This document shows, in pieces, positions 4,751 through 26,514 of a stretch of 32,000 nucleotides of DNA (the stretch's first letter is position 1; each line of letters starts with the position of its first letter). The stretch comes from Candidatus Electronema halotolerans (GTDB taxonomy: Bacteria; Desulfobacterota; Desulfobulbia; Desulfobulbales; Desulfobulbaceae), in contig OW818675.1 in assembly GCA_942493095.1 (NCBI GenBank), positions 1 to 32,000 of the forward strand, read 5' to 3'. The notes below the pieces were generated by a model, which was not told the DNA's origin, searched no databases, and worked only from the letters and a program-made list of their open reading frames with translations. The translations under genes were made by a program, and so were the position numbers.

Positions 4751-6789
4751 GCCGCACACAGCTTGTCAGCCAGGCTGATCTGCTCCGCCTGTTGGCCAGA
4801 CAGCCTGCTGCGCCGCTGACCGAGGCGGCCCGGCTGGTCGGATATCAGCCCCTATTGCCCACGCTTCTGCCAAAAGAAGAGGCTGCTTATGAAACTGCTC
4901 CTGCCACAGCCCAAGAACAGCAAGGTCTTGTTGAGCCGGTTTTCTGGCATTTAGCCCGGCGCGAGCCGCTGCACATTCGTCCCAGTCTCAAGCCTGCTGC
5001 TGGAGCGCAGAATCTGCCTGCGAAACTGCGGCATGTCCAGCCCTTGCGGGCGCAGGAGCTGCAATTCTCCGTTCCTGACCTGCTGGCGGAACAAGCTAGG
5101 CTGACTCTGCGGAAGCGGCAAAGCAAACAGAGAGCACTTGCCCAAGCAGTGCGCAGCGCGGCCCGGCTGCGGCCTTTGCCGTCACAACCGATTCAGCAAA
5201 GCGTCAAATATCAGCGGCTGGAGCGTCTGCCGCCGCCGGTGCGTGCGCTGGAGCTGCTCCGCCAAGGCGGGTTGCTGGAGCGCAGTCAGTGCGACTGGCT
5301 GGAGCGGTTCTTTCTCCGTCTGGCCCGGACGTGGCTTGACCGGCCCAAGAACGCGGAACTTCTCGATTATATCAACGAACTGCTGGAGCTGCTGCCAGAC
5401 AGCCTGCGCCGCCAGCAGGACGGCCCGGCCTTTCTCTATGGCATTGCTCATCGGGACGAGCTGCGGGCTGGAGCGACCATTCCGCAGCCATATCTGGCCG
5501 AGGCCATAGCAAGCATGATTCAGCAGCCGCTGCCTGCGTCAGAATGGCTGTTGGTGCAGAAGGGCGAGGAGCTGTTTCTGCTCAACAGCCCTGACAACGG
5601 CATCTGTTTGCTGCACGGCAGCCGGATCGGGGCTTTGCAGCTTGAGGCGGACCTGCTTCTCCTGCACCAAGGCGGGCAGACTGAGACTGCGCCGGTGCAG
5701 GAGGCAAAACCGATTTGCATTCTCAAGCGGGCCGAAACGGTCTGTCTGCAAAGCCAGAGCGAACAGCTCGTTATTCAGCCCTGCGCCAAACCGGCTTGGG
5801 CCGCCCTGATCGGCAGGAACAGCCGCGATCTCTTCGCCGAAGTGCTGTGGCTGGGCCGGAGCTGCCGCCTGCACTGGCAGATTCCTGCTGCAAACAGCCA
5901 AGGCCGCTGGCAGAGCTATGGCAGACCAGTGGATATGGACAGTTTCGGCCTTACGGCCTGCATCAGCTTTCAGGGCAAGGTGATGCAGCGGTTCCGCTGG
6001 CTGGAGCCGGGCCAGTTTTTCATGGGATCGCCAGAGGATGAGCCGGAACGGGAAATTTGGGGCAAGGAGACCCGGCATGAAGTGCATCTGAGCAAGGGCT
6101 TTTGGCTGGCAGACACGCCAGTCACGCAGGAGCTGTGGCAGTTTGTCATGCAGAACAATCCCTCGAAATTTCGCGGCAAAGATCATCCGGTTGACAGCGT
6201 GAGCTGGGAGGAGGTGCAGATTTTTCTCCAGCGGCTCAACGCCCTGCTGCCGGGCCTCAATGCCCGCCTGCCCTTTGAGGCGGAATGGGAATATGCCTGC
6301 CGGGCCGGGACCAGCACCGCCTTTGCCTTTGGCAGCCGGATCACGCCGGAGCAGGTCAACTATAACGGCCAGTTTCCGTGCAGTTGCGCGACAAAAGGGC
6401 TGTTCCGCCGCCGCACCGTGCCAGTGCGGAGTCTGCCAGCCAATGGCTGGGGTTTATACGAAATGCACGGCAATCTTTGGGAGTGGTGTCAGGACTGGTG
6501 GCTGGAGGATTTGGGGCCGGAACCTGCGCTTGATCCGCACGGGCCGGAACAGGGCGAATTTCGGGTTGTGCGGGGAGGCTCTTGGTTTCTTGGCGGCAAG
6601 GGGGTGCGCTCCGCAGTCCGGGGCAAGTTCGGGCCAGCAGATTTCGGCAGCGACCGGGTCGGCTTCCGCATTGCCTGCGCTCAGGAATCCGGCAGCAGAG
6701 AAGAACCGATTCCTGCGGCAAAAACAGACAGTAAACCAAAAAAGACAGGCGGCAGTCTGCTCAAGCGACTGCTGCGGTGGCGGCAATGA
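4747..6789 (+). CDS. 680-aa protein: unassigned N-terminal ~410 aa plus a C-terminal FGE/SUMF1-fold (formylglycine-generating-enzyme-like) domain
   Basis: C-terminal domain at about nt 5989-6678: RFRWLEPGQFFMGSPEDE, HEVHLSKGFWLADTPVTQELW, PVDSVSWEEVQIF, RLPFEAEWEYACRAG, WGLYEMHGNLWEWCQDWW, RVVRGGSW, RVGFRIA. I recognise no motif in the N-terminal part (Leu/Arg/Gln-rich). The start is coupled to the ATPase stop by ATGA. Confidence 0.8.
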   Translation: MSRTQLVSQADLLRLLARQPAAPLTEAARLVGYQPLLPTLLPKEEAAYETAPATAQEQQGLVEPVFWHLARREPLHIRPSLKPAAGAQNLPAKLRHVQPLRAQELQFSVPDLLAEQARLTLRKRQSKQRALAQAVRSAARLRPLPSQPIQQSVKYQRLERLPPPVRALELLRQGGLLERSQCDWLERFFLRLARTWLDRPKNAELLDYINELLELLPDSLRRQQDGPAFLYGIAHRDELRAGATIPQPYLAEAIASMIQQPLPASEWLLVQKGEELFLLNSPDNGICLLHGSRIGALQLEADLLLLHQGGQTETAPVQEAKPICILKRAETVCLQSQSEQLVIQPCAKPAWAALIGRNSRDLFAEVLWLGRSCRLHWQIPAANSQGRWQSYGRPVDMDSFGLTACISFQGKVMQRFRWLEPGQFFMGSPEDEPEREIWGKETRHEVHLSKGFWLADTPVTQELWQFVMQNNPSKFRGKDHPVDSVSWEEVQIFLQRLNALLPGLNARLPFEAEWEYACRAGTSTAFAFGSRITPEQVNYNGQFPCSCATKGLFRRRTVPVRSLPANGWGLYEMHGNLWEWCQDWWLEDLGPEPALDPHGPEQGEFRVVRGGSWFLGGKGVRSAVRGKFGPADFGSDRVGFRIACAQESGSREEPIPAAKTDSKPKKTGGSLLKRLLRWRQ

Positions 6790-7577
6790 TGTTTCAGGAT
6801 GTGCCTGCCCCATTTCCGCCGCCGTGGGCTTCCAGCTGGGGCGAGGATGCCTTGGGCCTCTGGCTGACCCTCAGCCAGCATGGCATCCGCCAGCTCTTCC
6901 GCTGGATCAGGCCCTGCAATTTTCTGATGGGCGCGCCGGACGAGGAGACTGCCGGACTGCATCTGCCGGGTCGGGAGACGCTGCATGAGGTGCGTCTGAG
7001 CAAAGGCTTCTGGCTGGCCGAGACAACCGTCACACAGGAACTCTGGCAGGCGGTCATGCACAGCAATCCCAGCGGCTTCAGCAGGCCGCAGCAGCCAGTA
7101 GAGCGGGTGAGCTGGGAGGATGCGCAGCTCTTTTTTCAACGGTTAAATGCCATGCTGCCAAAATTGCAAGCCCGCCTGCCCTTTGAGGCGGAATGGGAAT
7201 GCGCCTGCCGGGCTGGAAGCAGGACAGCTTTCTCCTTTGGCGAACAAATCAGGCCGGAGCAGGTCAATTTCAACACCTCCCTTGACGGCTGGGAGGAGCT
7301 GTACCGGCGCAGGACCGTGCCGGTGCGCAGTCTGCCTGCCAATGCTTGGGGTTTATACGAAATGCACGGCAATGTCTGGGAGTGGTGCCAAGACTGGTGG
7401 CAGGAGAATTTGGGCGCAGCAGCTGCTGCGAAGCCGCAGGGGCCGGAGCAATGTGACCTGCGGCCCGTGCGCGGCGGCTCCTGGGTCTGCGATGCCGCCT
7501 CTGTCCGCTCCGCCAGCCGCGACCGCTATCCTGCTGATTACCGGGGTGCCAGCATCGGTTTCAGGATTGCGGTGTGA
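6786..7577 (+). CDS. Stand-alone FGE/SUMF1-fold domain protein, paralog of the C-terminus of the preceding gene
   Basis: Same motif series: LFRWIRPCNFLMGAPDEE, HEVRLSKGFWLAETTVTQELW, RLPFEAEWECACRAG, WGLYEMHGNVWEWCQDWW, VRGGSW, IGFRIA. The ATG at 6786 overlaps the upstream TGA (ATGA at 6786-6789). The ORF track's GTG at 6777 is an alternative start. Confidence 0.8.
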   Translation: MMFQDVPAPFPPPWASSWGEDALGLWLTLSQHGIRQLFRWIRPCNFLMGAPDEETAGLHLPGRETLHEVRLSKGFWLAETTVTQELWQAVMHSNPSGFSRPQQPVERVSWEDAQLFFQRLNAMLPKLQARLPFEAEWECACRAGSRTAFSFGEQIRPEQVNFNTSLDGWEELYRRRTVPVRSLPANAWGLYEMHGNVWEWCQDWWQENLGAAAAAKPQGPEQCDLRPVRGGSWVCDAASVRSASRDRYPADYRGASIGFRIAV

Positions 7578-7586
7578 CGGCCCTGT

Positions 7587-8729
7587 TCACTGATTCAGCA
7601 GCAAATGGAGCGTGGCTTGCAAGGCCGGGTGAAATGAGGACGGCTGCGCAAAGTACGGCTGTAGAAAAGCCATTGCCGCTTGGTCCGGCCCTTGATCAGG
7701 CTGGCCTAAATTTGTCGGCTCAAGGGTGAATTGATAATCATCATCCCACCACGGGCCGCCAGCCCACCACGTCCAGCCAAGCCATACATCAGAATTTTCT
7801 TTGATATAGGTGAGCATGTTGTAAATGACCTCATCACCAATTTGGTCTTCTGCTGTGCCAATTGTGGAATTAGCCACGGCAAATTCAGCAAGAAAACCTT
7901 TGAAGTTGTGTTCTTTCAGCCAGTTGGTGAATTCCTCAAACTTCCATGTAATATAGGGATCATTGTTGCAAATTTCAGATGACTGGCCGGAGCTGTCACA
8001 ATCCATATACTGGTGAACTTCAAAGGCAAAATTGTTTTCCGAATCAACAATATTGAGCATGGCCTCAGAATTGGCACCATCATACCATGTTGCTGTCCAT
8101 GACCAAGCCCCGGTCCACCCGTTGCCGGGCACTAATATCAGATTTTTTGCTCCCGCATCACGAATAGCGGCAATGGCAGCATTTTCAGACGTGACCAATT
8201 GTGCTGTGGGCATGCTATTTGGTTCATTCATCAAACCAAAGATGACTTGGTTATTTTCTTTATAGTGACTGGCAAGTTTACTCCAGAAATCAGCAAACGC
8301 GGAATCTGGCACTTCATCGGTTCCGACCAGTCGCTTTTGGACATCATTTGAATCAGGATAGTATCGTTGATAATTATGAGGGTCAAGAATCACATAAGCA
8401 CCCTTTTCTGTCGCATAGTCAACAAAGGCATCCATCCGTGCCAGTTCGTCTGCATCCAATGCAGCATTCTGAGATTGTTGCAGCCGTTCCCAGCGAAAGG
8501 GCAGCCGAAAGGTGTTCATGCCTTTGCCGAGATAGTAATCAATCTCGGCAGAGTTTGGATATATGTAATCGGTGCCGTAGGTGCCGGGGAGATTGGAAGG
8601 GGTAGAGTCGGCACCGGATAAATTGATGCCGGTATATTTAATTTTTGCCTGCAAAATTGCTGGAAAAAACAGTAAGGCTGTGATCGTAAGCAATAAAAAC
8701 AATATCTGATGGAAGCTGCTTTTCTTCAC
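7587..8729 (-). CDS. Secreted glycoside hydrolase family 5 (cellulase/endoglucanase-like)
   Basis: GH5 pattern: TFRLPFRWERL, VILDPHNY, the acid/base motif FGLMNEPN, HQY, and the nucleophile context GFLAEFAV. I place the start at the GTG at 8729, because AAGGAG (complement of 8736-8741) lies 6 nt upstream and gives a classic signal peptide (V/M)KKSSFHQILFLLLTITALLFFPAILQA. The TTG at 8759 in the ORF track has no SD. GC is lower than the neighbours: sample lines count 21/60, 25/60 and 32/60. Confidence 0.8.
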   Translation of the reverse strand: MKKSSFHQILFLLLTITALLFFPAILQAKIKYTGINLSGADSTPSNLPGTYGTDYIYPNSAEIDYYLGKGMNTFRLPFRWERLQQSQNAALDADELARMDAFVDYATEKGAYVILDPHNYQRYYPDSNDVQKRLVGTDEVPDSAFADFWSKLASHYKENNQVIFGLMNEPNSMPTAQLVTSENAAIAAIRDAGAKNLILVPGNGWTGAWSWTATWYDGANSEAMLNIVDSENNFAFEVHQYMDCDSSGQSSEICNNDPYITWKFEEFTNWLKEHNFKGFLAEFAVANSTIGTAEDQIGDEVIYNMLTYIKENSDVWLGWTWWAGGPWWDDDYQFTLEPTNLGQPDQGPDQAAMAFLQPYFAQPSSFHPALQATLHLLLNQ

Positions 8730-9003
8730 TGAATTCTCCTTGTGTAAATGCGGATTCAAGTTGCAAGAGCAACGTTTGCTGATTTAAAAAGAACGAATTA
8801 CAGCAGGATGATAACCCGATTTTTGCAAAATAGCAAGAGGAGCGCAGAAAATCAACTTACCGAAACAAAACGTGACCAGATAGATGTACGCCTTGAGGCA
8901 GGCAGGATTGAAGCTGTCACGAAAATTTCCTGGCTTCATCACACCCAAAAAGCTATTCTTGAGAGTGAGTTAATCCGCAATCTCTGACCGCAACTGAACC
9001 ACC

Positions 9004-10581
9004 ATGCAAACGCAACACATTGCCGTTGTCGGCACCGGCTACTGGGGCAAGAATCTTGTCCGCAACTTTCATAATCTTGGTGCCCTGCGCACGGTCTGCG
9101 ACATCAGCGAGGAAACAGTGCGCCGCTTCATCGAGCAATACCCCGGCACCTTGGGTCTTCATGCCTACAGCGAGGTGCTGGCTGACGAGGCGGTGCAAGG
9201 GGTGGTCTTGGCCACGCCTGCAATTGCTCATGCCGGGCAGGCAAAAGAAGCCCTGCTGGCAGGCAAGGATGTTTATGTTGAAAAGCCTCTCTGCCTGAGC
9301 GAGGAGGAAGGCGCGGAGCTTATTGAACTGGCGGAACAGAAAGGCCGCATTCTGATGGTCGGCCATCTGCTTTGGTATCACGCGGCAGTGCTGCGGCTCA
9401 AGGCTTTGATAGAAGCAGGCGCGCTGGGCCGCATCCAATACATCTACTCCAACCGCCTCAACCTCGGCAAACTGCGGCGGGAGGAGAACGTCCTCTGGTC
9501 TTTTGCCCCGCACGACATTTCCGTCATTCTCGGCCTGCTCGGCGAGATGCCGGAGTTCATCCAAGCCCAAGGCGGCAACTACCTGCACCGCAAAATCGCT
9601 GACAGCACGGTCAGTCTGCTCAATTTTGCCAGCGGGGTGCGGGCGCATATCTTTGTTTCCTGGCTGCATCCGTTCAAGGAGCAGAAATTAGTGGTGGTCG
9701 GCGACCGGAAAATGGCTGTCTTTGACGACACCGCGCCGTGGCCGCAGAAGCTGGCCCTGTATCCGCATTCGGTGGAGTGGTCAGGCAACGTGCCAATGGC
9801 GCACAAGGCTGAGGTGGAATACGTTGCTTTGGAGGAAAGCGAGCCGCTCCGGGCTGAGTGCCAAGCCTTCTTGGCGGCGATTGCCAGCCGCCAGCCGCCT
9901 TATACGGATGGGCGGGAAGGACTGAATGTGCTTAAAGTGCTGAACCGCTGCCAGCAGGCTTTGGAGAGCGGGGCAGCCGTGCCGGTTGAGCCGGGCAAGG
10001 AAGAGAAGAAATTTCAAGCCCATCCCAGTGCGGTGATTGACAAGGGCACGGTCATTGGCCAAGGCACGAGAATCTGGCATTTCAGCCACATTCTCTCTGG
10101 CTCGGAGATTGGCCCGGAATGCAGCATTGGCCAGAACGCGGTCATCGGTCCCAAAGTGCGGGTGGGCAAGGGCTGCAAAATTCAAAACAATGTCTCGATT
10201 TACGAGGGCGTGACCTTGGAGGATCAGGTCTTCTGCGGCCCGTCCATGGTCTTCACCAATGTCTATAACCCGCGCTGCGAATTTCCGCGCAAGAACCAAT
10301 ACCGGCAGACCTTGGTCAAGCGGGGGGCGACGCTGGGGGCCAACTGCACCGTGGTCTGCGGCATCACCATTGGCAGCTACGCCTTTATTGCCGCCGGTGC
10401 GGTGGTGAAAGAGGATGTGCCGGACTTTGCCTTGATGGTCGGCTGCCCGGCCCGGCAGATCGGCTGGATGAGCCGCTTTGGCGAGCAGCTCGACCTGCCC
10501 CTGAGTGGTGAGGGTGAGACCGTCTGCCCGCACACTGGCGAACGGTATCGGCTGCAAGACGGCAGAGTTGCCATTGCGTAA
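9004..10581 (+). CDS. Fusion of a Gfo/Idh/MocA-family NAD-dependent sugar dehydrogenase (WbpB-like) and a left-handed beta-helix hexapeptide N-acetyltransferase (WbpD-like)
   Basis: The N-terminus has the Rossmann motif [13 protein letters not shown] and EKPL typical of Gfo/Idh/MocA. From about nt 10015 come hexapeptide repeats ([59 protein letters not shown]...). It is one continuous ORF. Confidence 0.8.
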
Positions 10582-10679: not shown

Positions 10680-12221
10680 TCATATATCCTCCCTGACCAG
10701 AACCAGCTCGACCCGTGGCAGTCGGTATTCATAGGCCCGCTGCGACTCGCCGGGCTGCCGTGGCAGCGGCTGATTGCCGCCTAATCCCAGCGGACGCACC
10801 CGGTTCGGGTCAATATTATGGGTGATTTGAAGATAGCGGCTCACTGCCTCAGCCCGATCCTGCGACAGACGCAAATTCTCATTCGGGTCGCCGCGCAGGC
10901 CGGTGTGGCCTTTGATGACAATGCGGAAGTGCGGATAATGACTGAGCCGCTCCATAGCCGCATCAATGGTCTGCTTGCCAAGGATGTCCAAGGTCGAGGT
11001 GCCCTGCTGGAAGATGATCGGATCAAGCTTCAGGGTGCCCACTTCCTTGAGCGCAGCCCAGCCCGCGCTGTCCAAGGGAGCAAAGGTGGCTGCCGTGCTC
11101 TTGCCGCTCTTGGTGAAGCCGGTGCTGCCCTGAAACAGCTCCTCCAGAAAGCTGCGGTTGGTGAGCCGGTAGGGATTGCCATCAGGGATCGGGCTTGAAG
11201 CAAAGTCGCCCGCATTGACGAGAATGTCAGCCGTGGATTCAATCGCGGCAATAATGCCTTCCTCGCCCATGCCGCCTGTGGCAGTCAGGCCGAACCACTG
11301 CTCGCAGTTGTCCACGAGCGAGAGCCAGTTCACGCCCTTGAGCATGATGCGGGCCTGCTCCTCATCCAAGCCGGTTTCTTCGGTAAGATGGCGGACCAGC
11401 AGGGCTTGATCCTGGCGGTATTTCTTCAGGACCTTGAAATAGGTGTTGAGGAAGAGCTTGACTAACTGGGGATTCTTGTCGGCAAAGTCACGGCGGACAA
11501 GGAGGATGTCAACAATCAGCCGCTCCGTGTCCTCTGTGCCGAGCAGCTTGACAATGCCTTTGTTCTGGAGAGCCTGGGTCACATCCGGCTCCCAGAGCAC
11601 AGCCACATCCGCCTCGCCGGAGAGCAGAACTTTTTTGGCCTGCTCTGAGCCTTTGGTGGCAATGCGCAGCGGGCCGGGCGGCGGATGCAGCTCCGGGACA
11701 TTGAAGTGGTCAGCAGCAGCCTTGGCCAGATGCTCGCTGGGGCTGGCTGAAGTGAAGGCCACCTTGGCATCGAGCTTGCCCTTGAGCGCGTCAAGATTGG
11801 CCACCCGGTCTTTGCGGGCAAGGATGGCATCGCCGCCCTTGGATTCGTCAATGACCGCGACAATCACTGCCGGGTAGCTGAACTGCTTCGCATTGAGCAG
11901 GTACGAATCCACAGTGGCCACAGCAAAATCAAACTCGCCCTCGTCCAAGCGTTTCATGCGGCTCTGATAGTCAGCCTTGTCATCCTCATAAGCCAAGAGC
12001 CAGCCAGCCCGGTGCAGGGCGGTTTTCATCTCTGGCGAGCGGATGGGAAAATAGCCGATCCAATTATCCACAGCAAGGCGGAGCTTGCCTTGAGTTCCGG
12101 CGGCATCGCTGGTCGCCTCCTGCTGGCGGTCAAGCAGCACTGGCAGGAGCAGCCATATCCCGTAGGTGACACCCATGCCGAGCAGGAGCAGGAGCAGGGC
12201 GCCGATCAGTCTGTCCTTCAT
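10680..12221 (-). CDS. Membrane-anchored periplasmic-binding-protein-like domain fused to a C-terminal OmpA-like peptidoglycan-binding domain
   Basis: N-terminal TM helix LIGALLLLLLGMGVTYGIWLLLPVLL. An SBP-like region follows (LRLAVDNWIGYFPI..., FDFAVATVDSYLLNA, VIVAVIDESKGGDAIL). The C-terminus is OmpA-like: FRIVIKGHTGLRGDPNENLRLSQDRAEAVSRYL. The ATG overlaps the upstream stop (ATGA at 12218-12221). Confidence 0.75.
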   Translation of the reverse strand: MKDRLIGALLLLLLGMGVTYGIWLLLPVLLDRQQEATSDAAGTQGKLRLAVDNWIGYFPIRSPEMKTALHRAGWLLAYEDDKADYQSRMKRLDEGEFDFAVATVDSYLLNAKQFSYPAVIVAVIDESKGGDAILARKDRVANLDALKGKLDAKVAFTSASPSEHLAKAAADHFNVPELHPPPGPLRIATKGSEQAKKVLLSGEADVAVLWEPDVTQALQNKGIVKLLGTEDTERLIVDILLVRRDFADKNPQLVKLFLNTYFKVLKKYRQDQALLVRHLTEETGLDEEQARIMLKGVNWLSLVDNCEQWFGLTATGGMGEEGIIAAIESTADILVNAGDFASSPIPDGNPYRLTNRSFLEELFQGSTGFTKSGKSTAATFAPLDSAGWAALKEVGTLKLDPIIFQQGTSTLDILGKQTIDAAMERLSHYPHFRIVIKGHTGLRGDPNENLRLSQDRAEAVSRYLQITHNIDPNRVRPLGLGGNQPLPRQPGESQRAYEYRLPRVELVLVREDI

Positions 12222-12994
12222 GGCGCAAACGCAGCCGGATCAAAGGTTTCCGCCTCAGCCAAGACATCAGCCAGCCCTTGGCGCAGGGCGGCAGGATTGT
12301 CCGCCGCCTTATAGACCGTGCGGCCCGGCATGTTGAGGCTGTGGTTCGTGCCAATGCAGAAGCCGATGGTGTGCAGCTCCACTGGCGTGTTGTTCAGCAT
12401 CCAGTTGACTTTTGCCGCAGGATCCTGGTTGCCATCGGCCTGCCCGTCCGTGACCACCACCAGCACATAACGGCCATAGCCAAGCTGGCGCGCAGCCTGC
12501 TGTTCCAGATGCGCATAACCGGTGCTGATCGCATCTTTAAGCGGGGTGCCGCCGGAAGCAGAGGCGGACTGAACCGTCTCGGCAAACTGCTGCCGGTTGC
12601 CCGTGCCCAAGGGCACCAGCTCGTAAATCTTGCTGTTGGTGAAGAGGAGCAGGCCAAGGTTGGCATCTGCCGGAACATTGGCGGCAAACTCTTTGAGCGC
12701 ATCCTTGGCTGTTTCAAGTTTGCTTTGCCTGCCAGAACACTGGTTGTCCTGCATGGAGCCGCTGCCGTCCAAGACCACATAGTAATTGGCGGCCAGCAGG
12801 TTCTTGGCCAAATGCACCTCTCCCTGCGGCGCAGGCGGCCAAGCCTTGCCAGCAGAATTCAGTGCATTTGCTGTCTTAGTCGTAGTTGCAGGCAAACTGC
12901 GCTGCTGTTTTTTCGGTGGTGGCGGTGAATCCTTGCAAGCGGTCAATCCGCCGAACAGCAGGACGGCCAGCAAGGTTGCTGCAATGCGTTTCAT
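12218..12994 (-). CDS. von Willebrand factor A (vWA) domain lipoprotein
   Basis: Signal peptide plus lipobox MKRIAATLLAVLLFGGLTAC. MIDAS motif YYVVLDGSGSM, later GGTPL and VLVVVTDGQADG. I prefer the ATG at 12994, which has SD GGGAGAG upstream, over the GTG at 13012 in the ORF track. Confidence 0.8.
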   Translation of the reverse strand: MKRIAATLLAVLLFGGLTACKDSPPPPKKQQRSLPATTTKTANALNSAGKAWPPAPQGEVHLAKNLLAANYYVVLDGSGSMQDNQCSGRQSKLETAKDALKEFAANVPADANLGLLLFTNSKIYELVPLGTGNRQQFAETVQSASASGGTPLKDAISTGYAHLEQQAARQLGYGRYVLVVVTDGQADGNQDPAAKVNWMLNNTPVELHTIGFCIGTNHSLNMPGRTVYKAADNPAALRQGLADVLAEAETFDPAAFAP

Positions 12995-13008
12995 TCTTCT
13001 CTCTCCCT

Positions 13009-14721
13009 TCACAACGGCGTGAAAACAGAAGTTTCAGCCTCAAGCTGGAGGATGCGGAACTCAACCCGCATGTTGTCGCGCCACTCCTGCTCCGTCTTAG
13101 GAGCGCACGGCTCGCTGCCGCAGATGCCGGTCTTGGGCTTGGCAATGCCGTGGCCCACGACGGCGAACTGGCTTTCATCCAAGGTGATGCCCTTGGCCGC
13201 AGCAAAGGCGATGATGCTGTCGCGCACGGCATTGGCCCGCGACAGACTGAGATTCTTGGCTGCCTGCTTGATCTGCTTGAGCACCATCTCGGTGGCATTG
13301 TTCTTCTTTGCCTTGAGATATCCAAGCGGGTCAGAATGCCCTTCAATGGTGATCACTGCGCCGCCGTAGGTGCTGGCCAGCTCAATCACCTTGCTGAAGG
13401 CATCCGCATACAGGTCCGCAGCGAACTGGTTCTGATTGGGCTGGAAAAAGACCTCAAAGGAGAACAGCTCGCCTTGGCTCAGGGTGCCCTGCTGCTGCTT
13501 GCGCTGGATCACGCCTGCCACCTTGGCAGTGTCAAACTTGGGCACAGCCACGCCCGCTATATTGCTCAGACCTTGTTTCAGGGTATTGTAATCAAAACTC
13601 GCCGCTGCAAACGGAGTCTGCTTGCCGAGCAGGCCGAGCGTGACAAAGGCGCTTTGAATCTGCTTCTGGAGCTTGTCGAAGTTGCGCGGATAGTTCTTGT
13701 CAGTGAAGAACTTGACATTGCCGGGAAAGCCGACAAATTCGCAGTCTGCATGGAGCGATTCCGCATCAGCAGTCGCTGCCGGACTGTCGAGCAGTATCTG
13801 GGCTGAAGCCTTGATCATGGCGGTGTAGTCCTTCATCCGGCTGCTCTTGTCTTTGAACAAGGCGGTGAGCTGCTCCTCGCCCTGCATCAGGCCGTTGACA
13901 AACTGCTCCACCTCGCTGCGATGGGCCTTGAAGTAATCAGAACGCACAGCATAGACATCAGCAATGACCCGGTTGGCGGTTTTGGTGGAAAGCATGATCT
14001 CCGCCCCTTTGACCGAGCCTTCCGCGCCTGTGCCGACCGTGCCGCCAGAGGTCAGGGCCAGTCCGTCCGGGATGATCATCATGGCCGCGTCAATGCCCTG
14101 ATCGCGGAAGGCCTCTGCCGGAGTCTCATCCGTGCCGGTCAAATCCTTGACCCATTTGATGGTCACATCCTTCATGGTCAGCCCGGCATCGGCGAGCACT
14201 GTGGCCAGATAATCAGCATGCGGGCCGTAGGCTTGCAGGGCCACGGTCTTGCCTTTCAGGTCCTTGGCCGTCTTGATGCCCGGCTTGACCACCAGACAGT
14301 CGCCGCCGTTTGACCACGTGAGCTGATAAATAATCACTGGCGCGGTGCGCGGGTCACGGGCAAGCACCTCGGCGGCCATGCCGACCATGCCGAGCGTGCC
14401 GCGCAGATAGGGTGTTTCGCCGCGCAGGTAGGCTTCGACCTGCTTTTTAAAGTCATCCTCGCGCACCAGGTGCAGATTCAGCCCTTTTTTGGCAAAAATG
14501 CTGCCCGGCGCAGTCTTGACCGCATTGCCGTTGGCAAGGATGGTGGCTTCGTCGCCGCCCCACGTGATGAGCGGCACTTGCACCGCCGCTCCTGCTTTAA
14601 CCTCTCCAGCCGGAGCAGTGATGACCTTGGCCAATGGCGGCGATTCAACATACTGCACGGCTTGGGCCGCAGTGCCGCAGAGCGCAAGGCAGATGCAGAG
14701 CAACTGCGCAATTTTTTTCAT
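13009..14721 (-). CDS. Secreted periplasmic-binding-protein-like domain fused to a C-terminal OmpA-like domain
   Basis: The ATG at 14721 has SD GGGAGA 7 nt upstream and gives the signal peptide MKKIAQLLCICLALCGTAAQA. The 57 codons upstream in the ORF track run into the repeat array. SBP-like region: LKGKTVALQAYGPHADYLA... OmpA-like C-terminus: VITIEGHSDPLG...LSLSRANAVRDSI...VEFRI. Confidence 0.75.
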   Translation of the reverse strand: MKKIAQLLCICLALCGTAAQAVQYVESPPLAKVITAPAGEVKAGAAVQVPLITWGGDEATILANGNAVKTAPGSIFAKKGLNLHLVREDDFKKQVEAYLRGETPYLRGTLGMVGMAAEVLARDPRTAPVIIYQLTWSNGGDCLVVKPGIKTAKDLKGKTVALQAYGPHADYLATVLADAGLTMKDVTIKWVKDLTGTDETPAEAFRDQGIDAAMMIIPDGLALTSGGTVGTGAEGSVKGAEIMLSTKTANRVIADVYAVRSDYFKAHRSEVEQFVNGLMQGEEQLTALFKDKSSRMKDYTAMIKASAQILLDSPAATADAESLHADCEFVGFPGNVKFFTDKNYPRNFDKLQKQIQSAFVTLGLLGKQTPFAAASFDYNTLKQGLSNIAGVAVPKFDTAKVAGVIQRKQQQGTLSQGELFSFEVFFQPNQNQFAADLYADAFSKVIELASTYGGAVITIEGHSDPLGYLKAKKNNATEMVLKQIKQAAKNLSLSRANAVRDSIIAFAAAKGITLDESQFAVVGHGIAKPKTGICGSEPCAPKTEQEWRDNMRVEFRILQLEAETSVFTPL

Positions 14722-14802
14722 GATAAAATCTCCCTTGAGTTGGATGCAGGTGCATTCCCAGTTTTGGGCAGCTTCGCATGAATGACAGAGTATGTCAAGT
14801 TT

Positions 14803-14831
14803 TTTATAAGAGGAATTGCGAGTTTGGGCAA
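14803..14831 (-). promoter_or_regulatory. Possible sigma70-type promoter TTGCCC-N17-TATAAA for the envelope operon
   Basis: On the minus strand, TTGCCC is the complement of 14826-14831, the spacer is 17 nt, and TATAAA is the complement of 14803-14808. It lies about 80 nt upstream of the ATG at 14721 and directly abuts the repeat array. Confidence 0.3.
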
Positions 14832-14834
14832 CCG

Positions 14835-15087
14835 GTTCATGCCCATAGTCCAGAAAGTTCCATGCACATGAACCGGAGCGTTCCATGCACATACACCCGA
14901 CTCGTCCATGTGCTTAGGCGAGGTTCATCTATGTGCTTATGCGAGACCCATCTATGTACATAGTTCTGATTCCCCCATGCACATAGATGCCGGACGACCA
15001 TGTGCATGGATGAAAAAGTTCCATGCACGGTGGTCGGTTTTCCCATTGTGCGCATGGAGGGGCGGTTCATGAACCGCCCCTACGCCT
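14835..15087. repeat. Eleven degenerate tandem units in exact 23-bp register, conserved core YCATGYRC (often CCATG-YR-CATGG)
   Basis: The 8-mers at 14837, 14860, 14883, 14906, 14929, 14952, 14975, 14998, 15021, 15044 and 15067 are TCATGCCC, CCATGCAC, CCATGCAC, CCATGTGC, CTATGTGC, CTATGTAC, CCATGCAC, CCATGTGC, CCATGCAC, CATTGTGC and TCATGAAC. The linker sequence between cores is not conserved. Confidence 0.8.
15059..15080 (-). other. Perfect 22-nt palindrome GGGGCGGTTCATGAACCGCCCC touching the NACHT stop codon
   Basis: The sequence is self-complementary over all 22 nt (a 9-bp GC-rich stem with a 4-nt loop as RNA). Its last base is the first base of the complement of the TAG at 15080-15082. 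No U-tract follows on the minus strand, so it is not a canonical intrinsic terminator. Confidence 0.5.
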
Positions 15088-17692
15088 CCTTCTTTTCCAG
15101 GATGGTGCCGGTGAGAATAGCGTCATCTAAGATCGCTCCCTCTAAATTGGCCCCTTCAAGGTTTGCGTCGCGCAAATTCGCATAAATAAGGACTGCGCCT
15201 TTGAGATTCGCTCCTGTAAGGTTGGCATCTTGCAAATTGGCTCCAAAAATATCCGCCTTTTCAAGATGCACGCCTTGCAAGTTTGCTTTTGCAAGAATTG
15301 AAAAATGCAACTTTGCGCCTTCAAGACGAGACATGGCAAAATTTGCACCCGCAAAATTCTGCACTGCAAGATGATAGCCGGATAAATCTAAGTATCCCAA
15401 CCAGCCTGCACGAGCACGCGGTCCACTCACCCGCCTAAACCATTCCCCGAAGGCTTGAGCAGACTCCAGCTCCAGCCTCGAAACCTGCTTAGTCAGCTCC
15501 GCGATATGAAAATGCACGGCCAGAAACGTTTCTTCCGCATTCCGGGCCAAGCGCAGGTGCTCCTTAAAGCCTTTGCCCAAGAAGGCATCAGGAAAAGGCA
15601 GGCCCTGATTGATGGTGTAACTGAGCAGCCCGCGCACCATGCCCTGCAAATTTTTCAGATCCTCTTTCTGCATCGCCCGGAACTCGTTGCTGATAAAGCG
15701 CAGCAGGTCATAATCCATATACGTGATGGCACAAAAGCCGGTCCAGTGCTGCAAAGCCTCCTTGTCTGACCAGCCGTCATCCGGGTCTTCCTGCCGCCGT
15801 CTGCGCTGCTTCTCCATCTGCCGCAAAACCCGGACAATGCGCAGGGCTGTCAGGTATTCGCCGAAGCTCTTATGGGTGAACTCAAAGGTCGGGTCGCCGT
15901 CCTGGCGGCTGTCGCTCTGCCGGAAATAAAAGGCGGTGAGCAGGCGGGTCACGCCCGCTTTGGCCCCTTCTTGGAATCGCTCCAGATAGCGTTCAATGCC
16001 GCCGGACTTGCACTTTGCCCGAATCCCGGCAACCGTGGCCGTGCGTCCGTCACCATGCCAGACCGCCAGCGCGATTTCTTCTAATACCCGGATGAAGTCT
16101 TTCTCCTCCAGCCCGCCCGTGCAAGTACTCACCCGTCCGCCGTCTTCGTACTGACGGCAATAGACCGCCCGGATAAGGTCGGCATAGATTTGATTCAGGG
16201 TGGTCTCATCGGTAAACTCGATGGTCTTGCGGTCATAGCTTAACGCGACCAAGTAATTCAGGAGCGGCTGGGCCGTGATCTCAGCCAGATGCTGCCGCGC
16301 CAGTTCATCAGGCAGGCCCGCATAGCCTTTGCCCGCAGCCGTGCCGTACCGTTGCCACCAGTCCTGCCGCTGATCACGCTCAAGCAGCTTGGCCGGGTCT
16401 TCGTATTGCTTCCGCTCCTCTTCCGCAACAAAATAGGGCAGAACGTGAGTTATCTGCTTATGCTTCCGCAGCTTCGTCTCCACCGACTGAACAGCGATAG
16501 TCCGCCCGGTGATAATGACCTGCCATTGTTTATCATAGCCGTTGTATTCCCGGATGCTATTCAACACCTCGTCGATAAAGTTATTGGCTACTTCCGAGGC
16601 CGCCTTGCCTTGCTGGGCCAGTTCGTCCAAACCGTCAAAGATGAGCAGGAGCCGGTTTTTACCCTTCTTGGCATCAAGCGGATTGCTGGGCAGAAATGGT
16701 TTTTTCCTGACATAGCTCTCCATTGCATCGATCAGGTCGCCCGTAGCATCAAAACGATGCAGGGGAATGTACAGGCAGGGAATCTTGCCTTCTGCGGCTG
16801 TCTTGGCGGCGAATATCTTGGCAAAGGTCGATTTTCCTGAACCCGGCCCGCCACTGATAAAGCGCACTGCTTGAGCAGCGGTGAAGTTGTTCAGCCAGCT
16901 GCGGAACTCGCTTTCCAGATCAACCACAATCCGTTTGGCCCTATCCCGCTGCGGCGCAATCTCCGGGCTGCTGCCCTCGTCCCGCTCCTTTTCCTCGTAA
17001 TAGGCCCGCAGCGGCACATAGACCTTTTCGACACCGAATGCCTCGGCAAACATCCGGTCGCTGATCTGCCGTTGCAGCCATTGCTTGTAGAGCTGCCAGC
17101 TCCGCACTTCTTCTGTGGCACTGGTGAACGGACTGTCGAAATACTGGGTCAGGGCGGCATAGTCATTCGGTGCCTTGCGCCATGTTTCATGCAGGGCAAA
17201 GACAAAATAATCCGGCAGACGAGAGGCTATCTGTTCCGCATCAACAGCACTGGCACCCAAGCCTTGCAGCCAAGCAGATAACGGAACTTGCAATTCCTTC
17301 AGCAGAGGCAGGTCGCCGGGCCGGTTGAAGAAATCAAGGCTGATTGTTACGTCCGCCTTGCCCATTTCTTCTTCAAAGCGGGCGGAAAGCGTTTCCAGCT
17401 CCGCTTCTTCCGGGCGATTGCGGAACAAATCACGGTTGTTCTTCACCAACTCTGCTAAGGCGGCGAACAGTGCGCGGGAAATGAGCTGCCAAGCCAGCTC
17501 TTCGGGTTTCTTGCTCACGCCAAGGGCGGCAAGGGCATCCACGGCAGCCGAGCCAACGTCGCTCCAGTCTTGGCACACACCCTCGACAACCATTTTGCCA
17601 AGACTGACAAAGAATTTCCTTGGTTCAACCTTGATTGCTTTGTTCCAAGCAGAAACCGGTTTGCTGATGTTCAGCTCATTGGTGGAAGTCAT
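15080..17692 (-). CDS. STAND NTPase: unassigned N-terminal ~270 aa, NACHT domain, helical region, C-terminal pentapeptide-repeat domain
   Basis: Walker A ISGGPGSGKSTF (complement of 16826-16852), Walker B RLLLIFDGLDEL, and the NACHT-type FEFTHKSFGEYLTA. The last ~105 aa (about 15083-15397) are pentapeptide repeats (ANFAMSRLEGAKLHFSILAKANLQGVHLEKADIFGANLQDANLTGANLKGAVLIYANLRDANLEGANLEGAILDDAILTG). There is no obvious SD before the ATG at 17692. Confidence 0.85.
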   Translation of the reverse strand: MTSTNELNISKPVSAWNKAIKVEPRKFFVSLGKMVVEGVCQDWSDVGSAAVDALAALGVSKKPEELAWQLISRALFAALAELVKNNRDLFRNRPEEAELETLSARFEEEMGKADVTISLDFFNRPGDLPLLKELQVPLSAWLQGLGASAVDAEQIASRLPDYFVFALHETWRKAPNDYAALTQYFDSPFTSATEEVRSWQLYKQWLQRQISDRMFAEAFGVEKVYVPLRAYYEEKERDEGSSPEIAPQRDRAKRIVVDLESEFRSWLNNFTAAQAVRFISGGPGSGKSTFAKIFAAKTAAEGKIPCLYIPLHRFDATGDLIDAMESYVRKKPFLPSNPLDAKKGKNRLLLIFDGLDELAQQGKAASEVANNFIDEVLNSIREYNGYDKQWQVIITGRTIAVQSVETKLRKHKQITHVLPYFVAEEERKQYEDPAKLLERDQRQDWWQRYGTAAGKGYAGLPDELARQHLAEITAQPLLNYLVALSYDRKTIEFTDETTLNQIYADLIRAVYCRQYEDGGRVSTCTGGLEEKDFIRVLEEIALAVWHGDGRTATVAGIRAKCKSGGIERYLERFQEGAKAGVTRLLTAFYFRQSDSRQDGDPTFEFTHKSFGEYLTALRIVRVLRQMEKQRRRRQEDPDDGWSDKEALQHWTGFCAITYMDYDLLRFISNEFRAMQKEDLKNLQGMVRGLLSYTINQGLPFPDAFLGKGFKEHLRLARNAEETFLAVHFHIAELTKQVSRLELESAQAFGEWFRRVSGPRARAGWLGYLDLSGYHLAVQNFAGANFAMSRLEGAKLHFSILAKANLQGVHLEKADIFGANLQDANLTGANLKGAVLIYANLRDANLEGANLEGAILDDAILTGTILEKKEA

Positions 17693-25220: not shown

Positions 25221-26417
25221 ATGAGCAATTCAGACTGGACAGCACGGGGTGAGGCAGTGTTTGCAGGCACCTACAGCCGTTTTCCGGCGGCCATTGTCAA
25301 GGGCGAGGGCTGCCGTCTCTGGGACGCGGACGGCAGGGAATACGTGGATTTTCTTGCTGGGATCGCGGTCTGCTCCTTGGGCCACTGTCACCCGGCAGTG
25401 ACCGAGGCCATCTGCGCGCAGGCCAAGCAGCTCGTGCATGTCTCCAACCTCTTTCACACCCTGCCGCAGATCGAGCTGGCCGAGCTGCTGACCGCGCACA
25501 GCTTTGCCGAGCGGGTCTTCTTCTGCAACTCCGGGGCAGAGGCCAACGAGGCCGCAATCAAGCTGGCCCGTATCTGGAGCGGCGCAGGCAGGCATGAGGT
25601 GATCTCGCTGACCGGCTCCTTTCATGGCCGGACGCTGGCCACAGTCGCGGCCACGGGTCAGCCCAAGTTCCACAAGGGTTTTGAGCCGCTGCCAGCAGGC
25701 TTTGTTCATGCTGAGTTTGGCGAGCCGCAAGAGCTGGAACGGCTGATCCGCCCGCAGACCTGCGCTGTGCTCTGCGAACCCTTGCAGGGCGAGAGCGGAG
25801 TGCGGCCCTTGTCGCCGGATTATCTGCTCGCCCTGCGGCGCATCTGCGATCAGCATGGCCTGCTCCTGATCTTTGACGAGGTACAGACCGGCATTGGCCG
25901 CACCGGCACACTCTTCGCCTACGAGCAGTGCGGCGTGGTCCCGGACATCATGACCCTGGCCAAGGCCCTTGCCAACGGCCTGCCCATTGGCGCGATGCTG
26001 ACCCGGACTGAGATTGCCGCCGCCTTCACACCCGGCACCCATGCCTCCACCTTTGGCGGCAATCCGGTTGCGGCAGCGGCAGCCGTGGCCGTGCTCAAGA
26101 CCATGCTGGCGGACGGCTTTTGTGCTGATCTGCATGAACGGAGCAAGTATTTCATCGGGCGGCTGGAAGAGATTGCCCGGCAGTTTCCGCAGCTCTGCAC
26201 CGGGGTGCGCGGACGCGGCATGCTGCTTGGCTTGGTGCTGACCGAAAAAGGCATCACGCACGGACAGGATATTGTCCGGCTTATGTTTGAGCGCGGCCTG
26301 CTGATCAACTTTGCCGGAATGCAGGTGCTGCGCTTCATCCCGCCCCTGACCGTCAGCCGCGAGGAAATCGACATTGTCATTGCCGGGCTAACTGAAGTAC
26401 TGGCTGAACTGGGCTGA
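25221..26417 (+). CDS. argD: Acetylornithine aminotransferase (class III PLP aminotransferase)
   Basis: YSRFPAAIVKGEGCRLWDADGREYVDFLAGIAVCSLGHCHP, FFCNSGAEANEAAIKLAR, LLIFDEVQTGIGRTG, DIMTLAKALANGLP and THASTFGGNP. Confidence 0.8.
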   Translation: MSNSDWTARGEAVFAGTYSRFPAAIVKGEGCRLWDADGREYVDFLAGIAVCSLGHCHPAVTEAICAQAKQLVHVSNLFHTLPQIELAELLTAHSFAERVFFCNSGAEANEAAIKLARIWSGAGRHEVISLTGSFHGRTLATVAATGQPKFHKGFEPLPAGFVHAEFGEPQELERLIRPQTCAVLCEPLQGESGVRPLSPDYLLALRRICDQHGLLLIFDEVQTGIGRTGTLFAYEQCGVVPDIMTLAKALANGLPIGAMLTRTEIAAAFTPGTHASTFGGNPVAAAAAVAVLKTMLADGFCADLHERSKYFIGRLEEIARQFPQLCTGVRGRGMLLGLVLTEKGITHGQDIVRLMFERGLLINFAGMQVLRFIPPLTVSREEIDIVIAGLTEVLAELG

Positions 26418-26435
26418 CACCCAGTGCGGGACGAG

Positions 26436-26497
26436 CTGGCACCGGGTGGCAAAACCTCTGGCACCGGGTGCGAGACAGGCTGGAACCGTGGTGCCAG
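26436..26497 (+). promoter_or_regulatory. 13-nt direct repeat CTGGCACCGGGTG (x2, 22-bp period) plus an inverted partial copy
   Basis: Identical 13-mers at 26436-26448 and 26458-26470. CCGTGGTGCCAG at 26486-26497 carries the reverse complement of CTGGCACC. The element lies between the argD stop and the first ATG of the MFS gene. Confidence 0.35.
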
Positions 26498-26514
26498 CCA
26501 ATGCCATTTCTGCC

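Follow-up and report, generated by a model that had tools for sequence, protein, structure and literature searches.

What is the array of short, regularly spaced palindromes that separates two minus-strand genes in the 32,000-nucleotide stretch of DNA from the cable bacterium Candidatus Electronema halotolerans analysed here (the window), and what protein might it serve? Upstream of the array, in the direction of transcription, lies a gene for a STAND NTPase with NNH3, NACHT and pentapeptide-repeat domains. Downstream lies an envelope operon encoding an NMT1/SsuA-like periplasmic substrate-binding domain fused to an OmpA-like domain (SBP-OmpA), a VWA protein and a second SBP-OmpA protein; this operon is the transcription unit on which the array would act. 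An earlier note described eleven units in 23-bp phase and read them as sites for a dimeric DNA-binding protein, with selection on the cores rather than slippage as their source, or alternatively as a structured 3' UTR or leader.

The array is a real, highly non-random feature of the window. Nine units keep an exact 23-bp phase from 14837 to 15032, the cores starting at 14837 + 23n (n = 0 to 8), and their 12-bp consensus is C-Y-A-T-G-Y-R-C-A-T-R-G. The self-match at a lag of 23 reaches 48 of 69 in the array, compared with a window-wide mean of 17.4 (standard deviation, 4.2) and a best value outside the array of 33. All five exact matches to the 10-mer CCATGYRCAT in the 32 kb fall within the array. 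Within the array the cores are 69% identical and the linkers 35%, and because the linkers differ, Tandem Repeats Finder detects only two short pieces. All units share one orientation without alternation, the minus strand being the canonical one, as in arrays upstream of HU-DUF4469 genes (described below). The GC content across the array is 0.46 to 0.53, with no AT-rich block.

Unit-by-unit inspection reduced the reported number of units (Table 1). The core readings at the nine register positions were exactly as the earlier note gave them, and the perfect palindrome at 14998-15009, CCATGTGCATGG, was confirmed. The unit at 15044, however, contains an indel, and the supposed eleventh unit at 15067, which was thought to overlap the NACHT stop codon, is not a unit: it is the loop of a perfect 22-nt palindrome, GGGGCGGTTCATGAACCGCCCC, which abuts that codon. 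Separate from the array units, this palindrome is a strong hairpin and lacks a U tract.

Table 1. Coordinates of the array, its units and the neighboring features in the window.
Feature	Position	Strand	Sequence or remark
Second SBP-OmpA gene	10680-12221		follows the VWA gene
VWA gene	12218-13012		second in the envelope operon
SBP-OmpA gene	13009-14721	-	first in the downstream operon; NMT1/SsuA-like periplasmic substrate-binding domain fused to OmpA-like domain
-10-like element	14770-14775	-	GAAGCT, 17 nt past the -35; predicted from ortholog comparison
-35-like element of the SBP-OmpA operon	14793-14798	-	TTGACA, preceded by an A-tract; conserved in L032, L033 and L034 (predicted promoter)
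Array	14837-15057	-	nine clear units and one degenerate unit in 23-bp register; from self-comparison and unit-by-unit alignment to L022, L172 and L173
Core 1	14837-14848		TCATGCCCATAG; weak; unit nearest the promoter
Core 2	14860-14871		CCATGCACATGA
Core 3	14883-14894		CCATGCACATAC
Core 4	14906-14917		CCATGTGCTTAG; AAGCAC-type on the minus strand, compare L174 and L009
Core 5	14929-14940		CTATGTGCTTAT
Core 6	14952-14963		CTATGTACATAG; perfect palindrome
Core 7	14975-14986		CCATGCACATAG
Core 8	14998-15009		CCATGTGCATGG; perfect palindrome
Core 9	15021-15032		CCATGCACGGTG; right half decayed
Unit 10	15044-15057		CATTGTGCGCATGG; degenerate; 1-2-nt indel, right half out of register
22-nt palindrome	15059-15080	-	GGGGCGGTTCATGAACCGCCCC; perfect; directly after the NACHT stop codon (TAG, 15082-15080)
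NNH3-NACHT-pentapeptide-repeat STAND NTPase gene	15080-17692	-	upstream of the operon

The first SBP-OmpA gene has its true start at the ATG at 14721. A promoter-like element of the form TTGACA-N17-nAAnCT is kept upstream of the orthologous genes at three loci (L032, L033 and L034), where the -10-like hexamer reads GAATCT, CAATCT or CACTCT. The last core of the array lies about 45 bp from the TTGACA (14798-14793). It had been suggested that the array ends at the -35 hexamer of a promoter at 14803-14831; the hexamer pair in question, TTGCCC-17-TATAAA, is present, but the conserved promoter is situated about 33 bp downstream.

To find related arrays, we scanned 185,579 species genomes for pairs of cores at a 23-bp spacing. 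Thirty loci were recovered against about 17 chance matches expected by our own estimate, and most contained two units only. Multi-unit arrays were found in Ca. Electronema sp. KV (loci L017 and L022), a Desulfobulbaceae metagenome-assembled genome (MAG; L009), a Kiritimatiellaeota gut MAG and the rumen MAG RUG12514. Among these, the gene contexts of the Electronema and Desulfobulbaceae arrays are unrelated, and the cable-bacterial copies have the array in common and not the flanks. GTAG or CGTC occurs in the linkers of the Kiritimatiellaeota and RUG12514 copies, and the cable-bacterial arrays have neither such tags nor common flanks. A scan of metagenomes for three cores at 23 bp returned at least 120 loci; among the matches listed were large groups of three- to four-unit arrays with cores ACATG-YR-CATGT and AGATG-YR-CATCT, on low-GC contigs (about 30-55% G+C), many of them from human-gut metagenomes. 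In viral contigs, the pattern scan returned mostly plain tandem repeats and the protein scan two loci only.

Unit for unit, and in the linkers too, the window array can be aligned with those that precede the HU-DUF4469 genes at L022, L172 and L173. Its linkers are 56% identical to those of L022, and the minus-strand linker at core 9, AACTTTTTCATCC, matches the first linker of the L022 and L173 arrays at 13 of 13 positions. The linker pattern is collinear in all four arrays, with A/T-rich AACTTTTT linkers on either side of GC-rich central ones, and linkers such as AACTTTTTCATCC, TCGTCCGGCATCT and AACGCTCCGGTYC recur in the same order in the window and in the other Electronema and Desulfobulbaceae arrays. 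Since linkers match in order across unrelated gene contexts, they are inherited from a parent array rather than free. Thus, the linkers are unrelated, as the earlier note held, only within the array; between loci they correspond, and the whole array of about 200 bp behaves as one copied element.

Immediately downstream of the L022 array is a gene that encodes 361 aa and weakly matches the HU-HIG family. At least 822 homologs of its product, of about 358 aa, occur in Electronema, Electrothrix and Desulfobulbus; they are annotated DUF4469 and show scattered HU Pfam matches. A HU-DUF4469 remnant consisting of a C-terminal fragment only is found at the contig end of L032, one of the orthologous operon loci.

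The association between arrays and HU-HIG/DUF4469 genes was examined from both sides. Starting from DNA, we searched for Pfam domains among 150 open reading frames (ORFs) flanking 94 nontandem arrays; HU-HIG (PF18291) was the commonest family among the matches listed (n = 9). Every HU-HIG ORF among the matches listed for these DNA-pattern loci lay 25 to 243 bp downstream of the array and was transcribed away from it, and these ORFs represent five or more independent groups (L061-type, L116-type, L113, L125 and the viral contig L035). Starting from protein, we fetched seven cable-bacterial loci by the protein alone (L169, L170, L171, L172, L173, L174 and L180). Six of the seven carried a clear 23-bp array in the approximately 300 bp upstream, and that of L174 was degenerate and below the scan threshold. 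The gene-linked arrays end just before promoter-like sites of the form TTGACA-N17-TAnnnT. Multiples of 3 aside, lag 23 clearly dominated an unbiased scan that covered 195 kb of cable-bacterial DNA, lag 22 appearing in a few windows, and lag-23 arrays were found only at HU-DUF4469 genes and at two orphan positions, those of the window and L017. Arrays and HU-HIG/DUF4469 genes are linked in tests in both directions. No second gene was conserved beside the arrays among the loci examined.

The core sequence differs between paralogs and is kept in close orthologs. L022 and its orthologs L172 and L173 (78-90% protein identity) have the core ATGTACAT, and L174, at 70% identity to the L022 protein, has a decayed core of the AAGCAC type. 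Three paralogs of the L022 protein follow cores of CAC-YR-GTG (L169), GYCAC-N5-GTGRC (L170) and ATCAYG-NN-CRTGAT (L180), and the syntenic gene of L171, only 55% identical to the L022 protein, follows GATA-SS-TATC. Cores are uniform within an array while linkers differ, and cores differ between paralogs. This pattern indicates that selection acts on recognition by a factor co-evolving with the array, for which the product of the adjacent gene is the simplest candidate.

The linkage extends to Bacteroidales. The loci fetched by protein belong to B. finegoldii, Phocaeicola massiliensis and Parabacteroides distasonis. L177 and L179 contain arrays, of GACACCCGGGTGTC at 23 bp and GGACGTACGTCC at 22 bp, and none was found at L178. 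Among 12 further Bacteroidales loci, a lag of 21 to 22 was the strongest periodicity of the whole 4.6 kb in nine and lay no farther than about 200 bp in front of the HU gene; the remaining three had weaker arrays upstream of the HU gene.

As a class, HU-HIG-linked arrays are defined here by three or more palindromic cores of 8 to 14 bp in a strict 21- to 23-bp register with linkers not conserved within the array, by an end a short way before a sigma-70-like -35 element (canonical orientation), by homology to an array directly upstream of a HU-HIG/DUF4469 gene and by a HU-HIG gene immediately downstream. The array of the window has all these features, its promoter being predicted, except the last. 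A family HMM search found no HU-HIG-like ORF anywhere in the 32-kb window, so that the cognate paralog of the host is not among the window genes and the window copy is an orphan, as are L017, L009 and the array at 6444-6583 of L171.

The cable-bacterial protein is predicted to have an HU-Ig fold. The AlphaFold2 model of a family member (P0122; pLDDT, 83.7) gave as its top Foldseek match 4FMR, an HU-Ig protein of Bacteroides (E = 5e-11), with classical HU/IHF structures next. When PDB sequences were searched by profile, HU-family proteins alone were retrieved, and the cable-bacterial and Bacteroidales family HMMs detect one another. The beta-arm region is acidic and proline-rich (consensus, GRLDSPDDPLPPVEE), whereas the arms of HU and IHF are basic. 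Burroughs et al. (2017; PMC5499826) described HU-HIG proteins as HU fused to an Ig-like domain, with lineage-specific expansions, rapid divergence and no conserved neighbor genes. They treated the clade as a Bacteroidetes radiation, reported no linked DNA element and, arguing that the Ig domain in 4FMR occludes the DNA clasp, considered HU-HIG proteins unlikely to be sequence-specific transcription factors (PMC5499826). Given the occlusion argued from 4FMR, any contact of HU-HIG proteins with DNA would have to be nonclassical. The family studied here is the same as that of Burroughs et al., but its large expansion extends to cable bacteria, and almost all members examined follow a private phased palindrome array. 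Neither DUF4469 nor these core sequences nor an HU-HIG-linked DNA element was described in the literature searched, in agreement with the earlier statement that no element of this form has been described, and no account of the array-gene link was found in the literature on cable-bacterial repeats and on 4FMR/BVU_2165.

We propose that the window array is an orphan copy of the phased arrays found at HU-HIG/DUF4469 promoters and consists of sites for an ATG-YR-CAT-specific paralog, a reading to which we assign a probability of roughly 0.6. Homodimers of this paralog would bind one to each 12-bp palindrome, adjacent dimers would touch at the fixed 23-bp spacing, and nine to ten dimers would build a continuous nucleoprotein structure of about 220 bp. 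At the HU-HIG protein's own gene, such a structure would abut the -35 element and provide feedback control. In the window, it would stop some 45 bp short of the envelope operon's conserved TTGACA, and the promoter, or the local DNA architecture, would come under the control of a paralog encoded elsewhere in the genome. The window array has the same orientation as the gene-linked arrays and a similar distance from a TTGACA. At 10.5 bp per turn, a spacing of 23 bp would rotate successive dimers by approximately 69 degrees and give a superhelical filament, and underwinding to about 11.5 bp per turn would place all dimers on one face of the DNA. We infer the binding of the HU-HIG protein to the array, the dimer-dimer cooperativity and the sign of any regulation. 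The comparative evidence thus favors the earlier view of a phased array of dimer sites with selection on the cores, now with HU-HIG/DUF4469 paralogs as candidate binders, but not the part of it that took the linkers to be free. For the family as a whole, we consider it about an even chance that HU-HIG/DUF4469 proteins are sequence-specific, array-forming DNA binders, with one private palindrome per paralog every 21 to 23 bp, which regulate their own genes and, through orphan arrays, control or structure other loci.

The window was compared with three orthologous SBP-OmpA operons, those of L032 (95% identical at the protein level), L033 (83%) and Ca. Electronema sp. TJ (L034; 80%). None of them has the array or the NACHT gene, and the NACHT gene therefore belongs to the same rearranged segment as the array. 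Since both are missing in the orthologs and the promoter is kept, the array is a recent arrival and not an ancestral operator. Thus, it is not a conserved cis-regulatory operator of the SBP-OmpA operon, and if the array controls that operon at all, it has come to do so only recently.

The same absence would be expected if the window copy were a functionless by-product, that is, DNA from upstream of an HU-DUF4469 gene that was duplicated, or brought in with the NACHT gene, and is now decaying with no effect on the flanking units. The degeneracy of units 1, 9 and 10 also fits this account, as does the fact that no mechanism for copying arrays is known. However, relative to the parent-type array the cores are better kept than the linkers (72% versus 56% identity), the exact register is intact over nine units, and the orientation and promoter distance mimic the arrangement at an HU-HIG protein's own gene, as they also do in the orphan L017. 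We regard a functionless by-product as unlikely.

It is also rather doubtful that some other factor, such as a helix-turn-helix regulator or a nucleoid protein, binds the arrays, HU-HIG genes being merely its commonest targets and the window array another. The acidic arm region and the occluded clasp do oppose DNA binding of the classical HU type, and the window lacks an HU-HIG gene. Yet a private core for each paralog would then need a separate, unlinked regulator for each, and no second gene is conserved beside the arrays.

The array could instead act as RNA, through read-through from the NACHT gene or an upstream start, its tandem hairpins forming a structured 3' UTR or leader that would stabilize mRNA or bind the HU-like protein; E. 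coli HU is known to bind some RNAs. The minus-strand RNA folds at -146 kcal/mol (z = -7.0) and turns several mismatches of the cores into G-U pairs, compared with a folding energy of -134 kcal/mol (z = -4.6) for the plus strand, and the NACHT stop codon is followed by a strong hairpin. However, palindrome arrays fold well on both strands, and by our own reading the minus-strand tolerance of G-U pairs is not reproduced in L017, so that strand asymmetry was rejected as a signature of RNA function. The array of L009 runs opposite to its flanking genes, 35 bp from a start codon, and neither the window nor 16 related loci matched an Rfam 15 covariance model at the gathering score. The 3' UTR or leader envisaged in the earlier note loses ground because, at HU-HIG genes, the predicted promoters come after the homologous arrays, and we consider an RNA element very unlikely.

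Least credible is a selfish repeat of the REP/BIME or MITE kind, or a set of iterons of an origin or partition site, since, although the arrays are dispersed and intergenic, those of Kiritimatiellaeota and RUG12514 (same core and period) have repeated flanks of 50 to 250 bp and sit near contig ends, and a period of about 22 to 23 bp is typical of iterons, there is no consistent GTAG/CGTC tag, no alternation of units, no transposase, rep, par, DnaA box or AT-rich unwinding region nearby, and no flank shared among the cable-bacterial copies.

Several specific identities were rejected. The array does not fit REP/BIME elements, which are GC-rich imperfect palindromes of 20 to 40 nt, often alternating in orientation and present at high copy number along with a RAYT transposase: its palindrome is a 12-bp core only, CGTC/GACG stands beside two of nine units and GTAG beside none, and the orientation is single. 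The neighbors expected of iterons are missing, the array being flanked by the NACHT NTPase gene and the SBP-OmpA operon with no DnaA box within 2.7 kb and no AT-rich block. A CRISPR array, in which repeats of about 23 to 50 nt alternate with unique spacers of similar length, is excluded by the 12-nt core and 11-nt linker, by linkers that are inherited and not unique and by the lack of cas genes among the neighbors tested. The KV arrays at L022 and L017 are inverted and about 7 kb apart, which would suit transposon ends, but EF-G and ordinary genes, and no transposase, lie between them. CATG-YR-CATG is a perfectly alternating pyrimidine-purine 10-mer of a kind that might adopt Z-DNA or be unusually flexible; since other paralog cores, such as GATAGGTATC and GACACCCGGGTGTC, are not alternating, alternation is not the general constraint.

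By analogy, the proposed HU-HIG arrays appear most like lambdoid operator sets, iterons and ParR or omega arrays, in which phased sites lie beside the gene of their binder. The lambdoid OR and OL operators are palindromic dimer sites about 23 to 24 bp apart, center to center, bound cooperatively at CI's own promoter in autoregulation. Lambda CI, however, is a helix-turn-helix protein that uses three 17-bp sites in a phage immunity region, whereas here 3 to 10 sites of 8 to 14 bp accompany a protein with HU fold and Ig domain, on the chromosome, with private-core paralogs and orphans. Iterons (RK2, R6K, P1 and F) comprise four to seven repeats in a phase of about 22 bp, are bound by the product of an adjacent gene and, as extra arrays, titrate or regulate. 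They are direct, nonpalindromic repeats in an origin that also contains DnaA boxes and an AT-rich region; neither accompanies the arrays described here, which occur in chromosomal housekeeping contexts. In ParR-parC and omega arrays, many short phased repeats lie upstream of the binder's own promoter, and dimers coat them into an autoregulating nucleoprotein structure, but the proteins are of the ribbon-helix-helix type, the repeats are 7 to 20 bp, and a plasmid partition ATPase is the partner, for which there is no counterpart gene here. Within the HU/IHF superfamily, IHF at the BIME-1 (RIP/RIB) sites, Hbb and TF1 recognize dispersed repeats or specific sites. An IHF-type site is single, asymmetric and about 30 bp long and is gripped by basic beta-arms, in contrast to tandem symmetric 12-bp sites every 23 bp and an acidic arm region.

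Few families of unknown function are as expanded in Bacteroidales, a dominant order of the human gut, as the HU-HIG proteins, and the family is greatly expanded in cable bacteria too. Its sole published analysis found no genomic linkage and proposed a vague role in biological conflict. The link between arrays and genes provides a predicted DNA target for each protein and a predicted regulator for each orphan array, and points to a first testable function for the family, with a substantial chance that this function is thereby revealed. If HU-HIG proteins do bind their arrays, a code of one paralog, one palindrome would be common to cable bacteria and human-gut Bacteroidales, and the published inference against sequence-specific HU-HIG regulators would be overturned. 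In the window, the link accounts for an odd stretch of intergenic repeats, and the prediction is that an envelope operon of substrate-binding, OmpA and VWA proteins has recently been brought under one HU-HIG paralog.

In Ca. Electronema sp. V4, an orphan array, that is, a phased palindrome array with no gene of the HU-HIG/DUF4469 family directly downstream, is flanked by a 230-aa gene and a His_biosynth-family (PF00977) gene. The HU-DUF4469 gene of this locus is located 3.4 kb from the array, and its own core (GATA-SS-TATC) is different.

The smaller second array of the window occupies a gap of about 97 bp between a gene end at 26417 and the ATG (26515) of a probable transporter gene. Its palindromic core, GGCACC-GGGTGC(C)-like, is similar to the cores of the gene-linked arrays at L169 (CAC-YR-GTG) and L170 (GYCAC-N5-GTGRC), and given this similarity, a further HU-DUF4469 paralog may have an orphan site here.

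Phased arrays and a separate palindrome
Feature	Location	Source	Description
Orphan array	L171:6444-6583	Ca. Electronema sp. V4	six units, 22-bp period, core CGACAGCYTRTCG
Smaller second phased array	window 26418-26499	window	four units, 22-bp period
ACATG-YR-CATGT arrays	L053, L054, L056, L067, L092, L095, L104 and others	metagenome contigs, several from human gut	four units
CCATGCGCATGG arrays	L002, L004, L013, L019	Kiritimatiellaeota MAG CAKTYZ01	
CCATGCGCATGG arrays	L003, L012, L018, L057	rumen MAG RUG12514; L057, similar metagenome contig	
Perfect 22-nt palindrome	window 15059-15082	window	starts at last base of NACHT stop codon

Two HU-DUF4469 paralogs are present in L169 (1-909 and 10001-11077), with about 9 kb between them. 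At L173, the HU-DUF4469 gene is directly preceded by a second gene of similar size (360 aa; the two genes span 6787-7869 and 8273-9346), which gave no match to the family HMM. Gyrase, topoisomerase, and clpB are encoded on the PLSDB "plasmid" records of strain set TSDC17.2-1.1, which are thus evidently pieces of the chromosome.

The four-unit ACATG-YR-CATGT arrays are flanked by inverted repeats, so that the entire element of about 130 bp forms one long palindrome. Several copies occur per assembly, adjoining genes as varied as those for GH3, PLD, a TonB-type receptor, and DUF6377. These elements probably represent orphan arrays belonging to the HU-HIG paralogs of Bacteroidales that L061 and L116 typify. 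The CCATGCGCATGG arrays consist of 3 to 9 units at an exact 23-bp spacing, have repeated flanks, and are often located at contig ends; within the short flanks fetched, no HU-HIG gene was seen beside them. In the Kiritimatiellaeota copies, the linkers on either side of the central core are complementary to each other, making the element one long hairpin.

The palindrome at the stop codon of the NACHT gene, upstream of the main array, is a strong hairpin that lacks a U tract. Its loop, TCATGA, falls coincidentally in the 23-bp phase of the main array.

At L113, the DNA separating the ATG-YR-CAT array from the HU-HIG gene contains about four copies of a second repeat family, ATGGAGnCTTTTnTATATAAA (1095-1260). 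In the B. finegoldii locus, the 22-bp periodicity is strongest (L190:2682-2750) just 3' of the HU-family gene and 5' of an "ATP-binding protein" gene. An HU gene is likewise followed by an AAA/ATP-binding gene at L183 and L184, and this shared gene order hints that the two form a recurrent gene pair.
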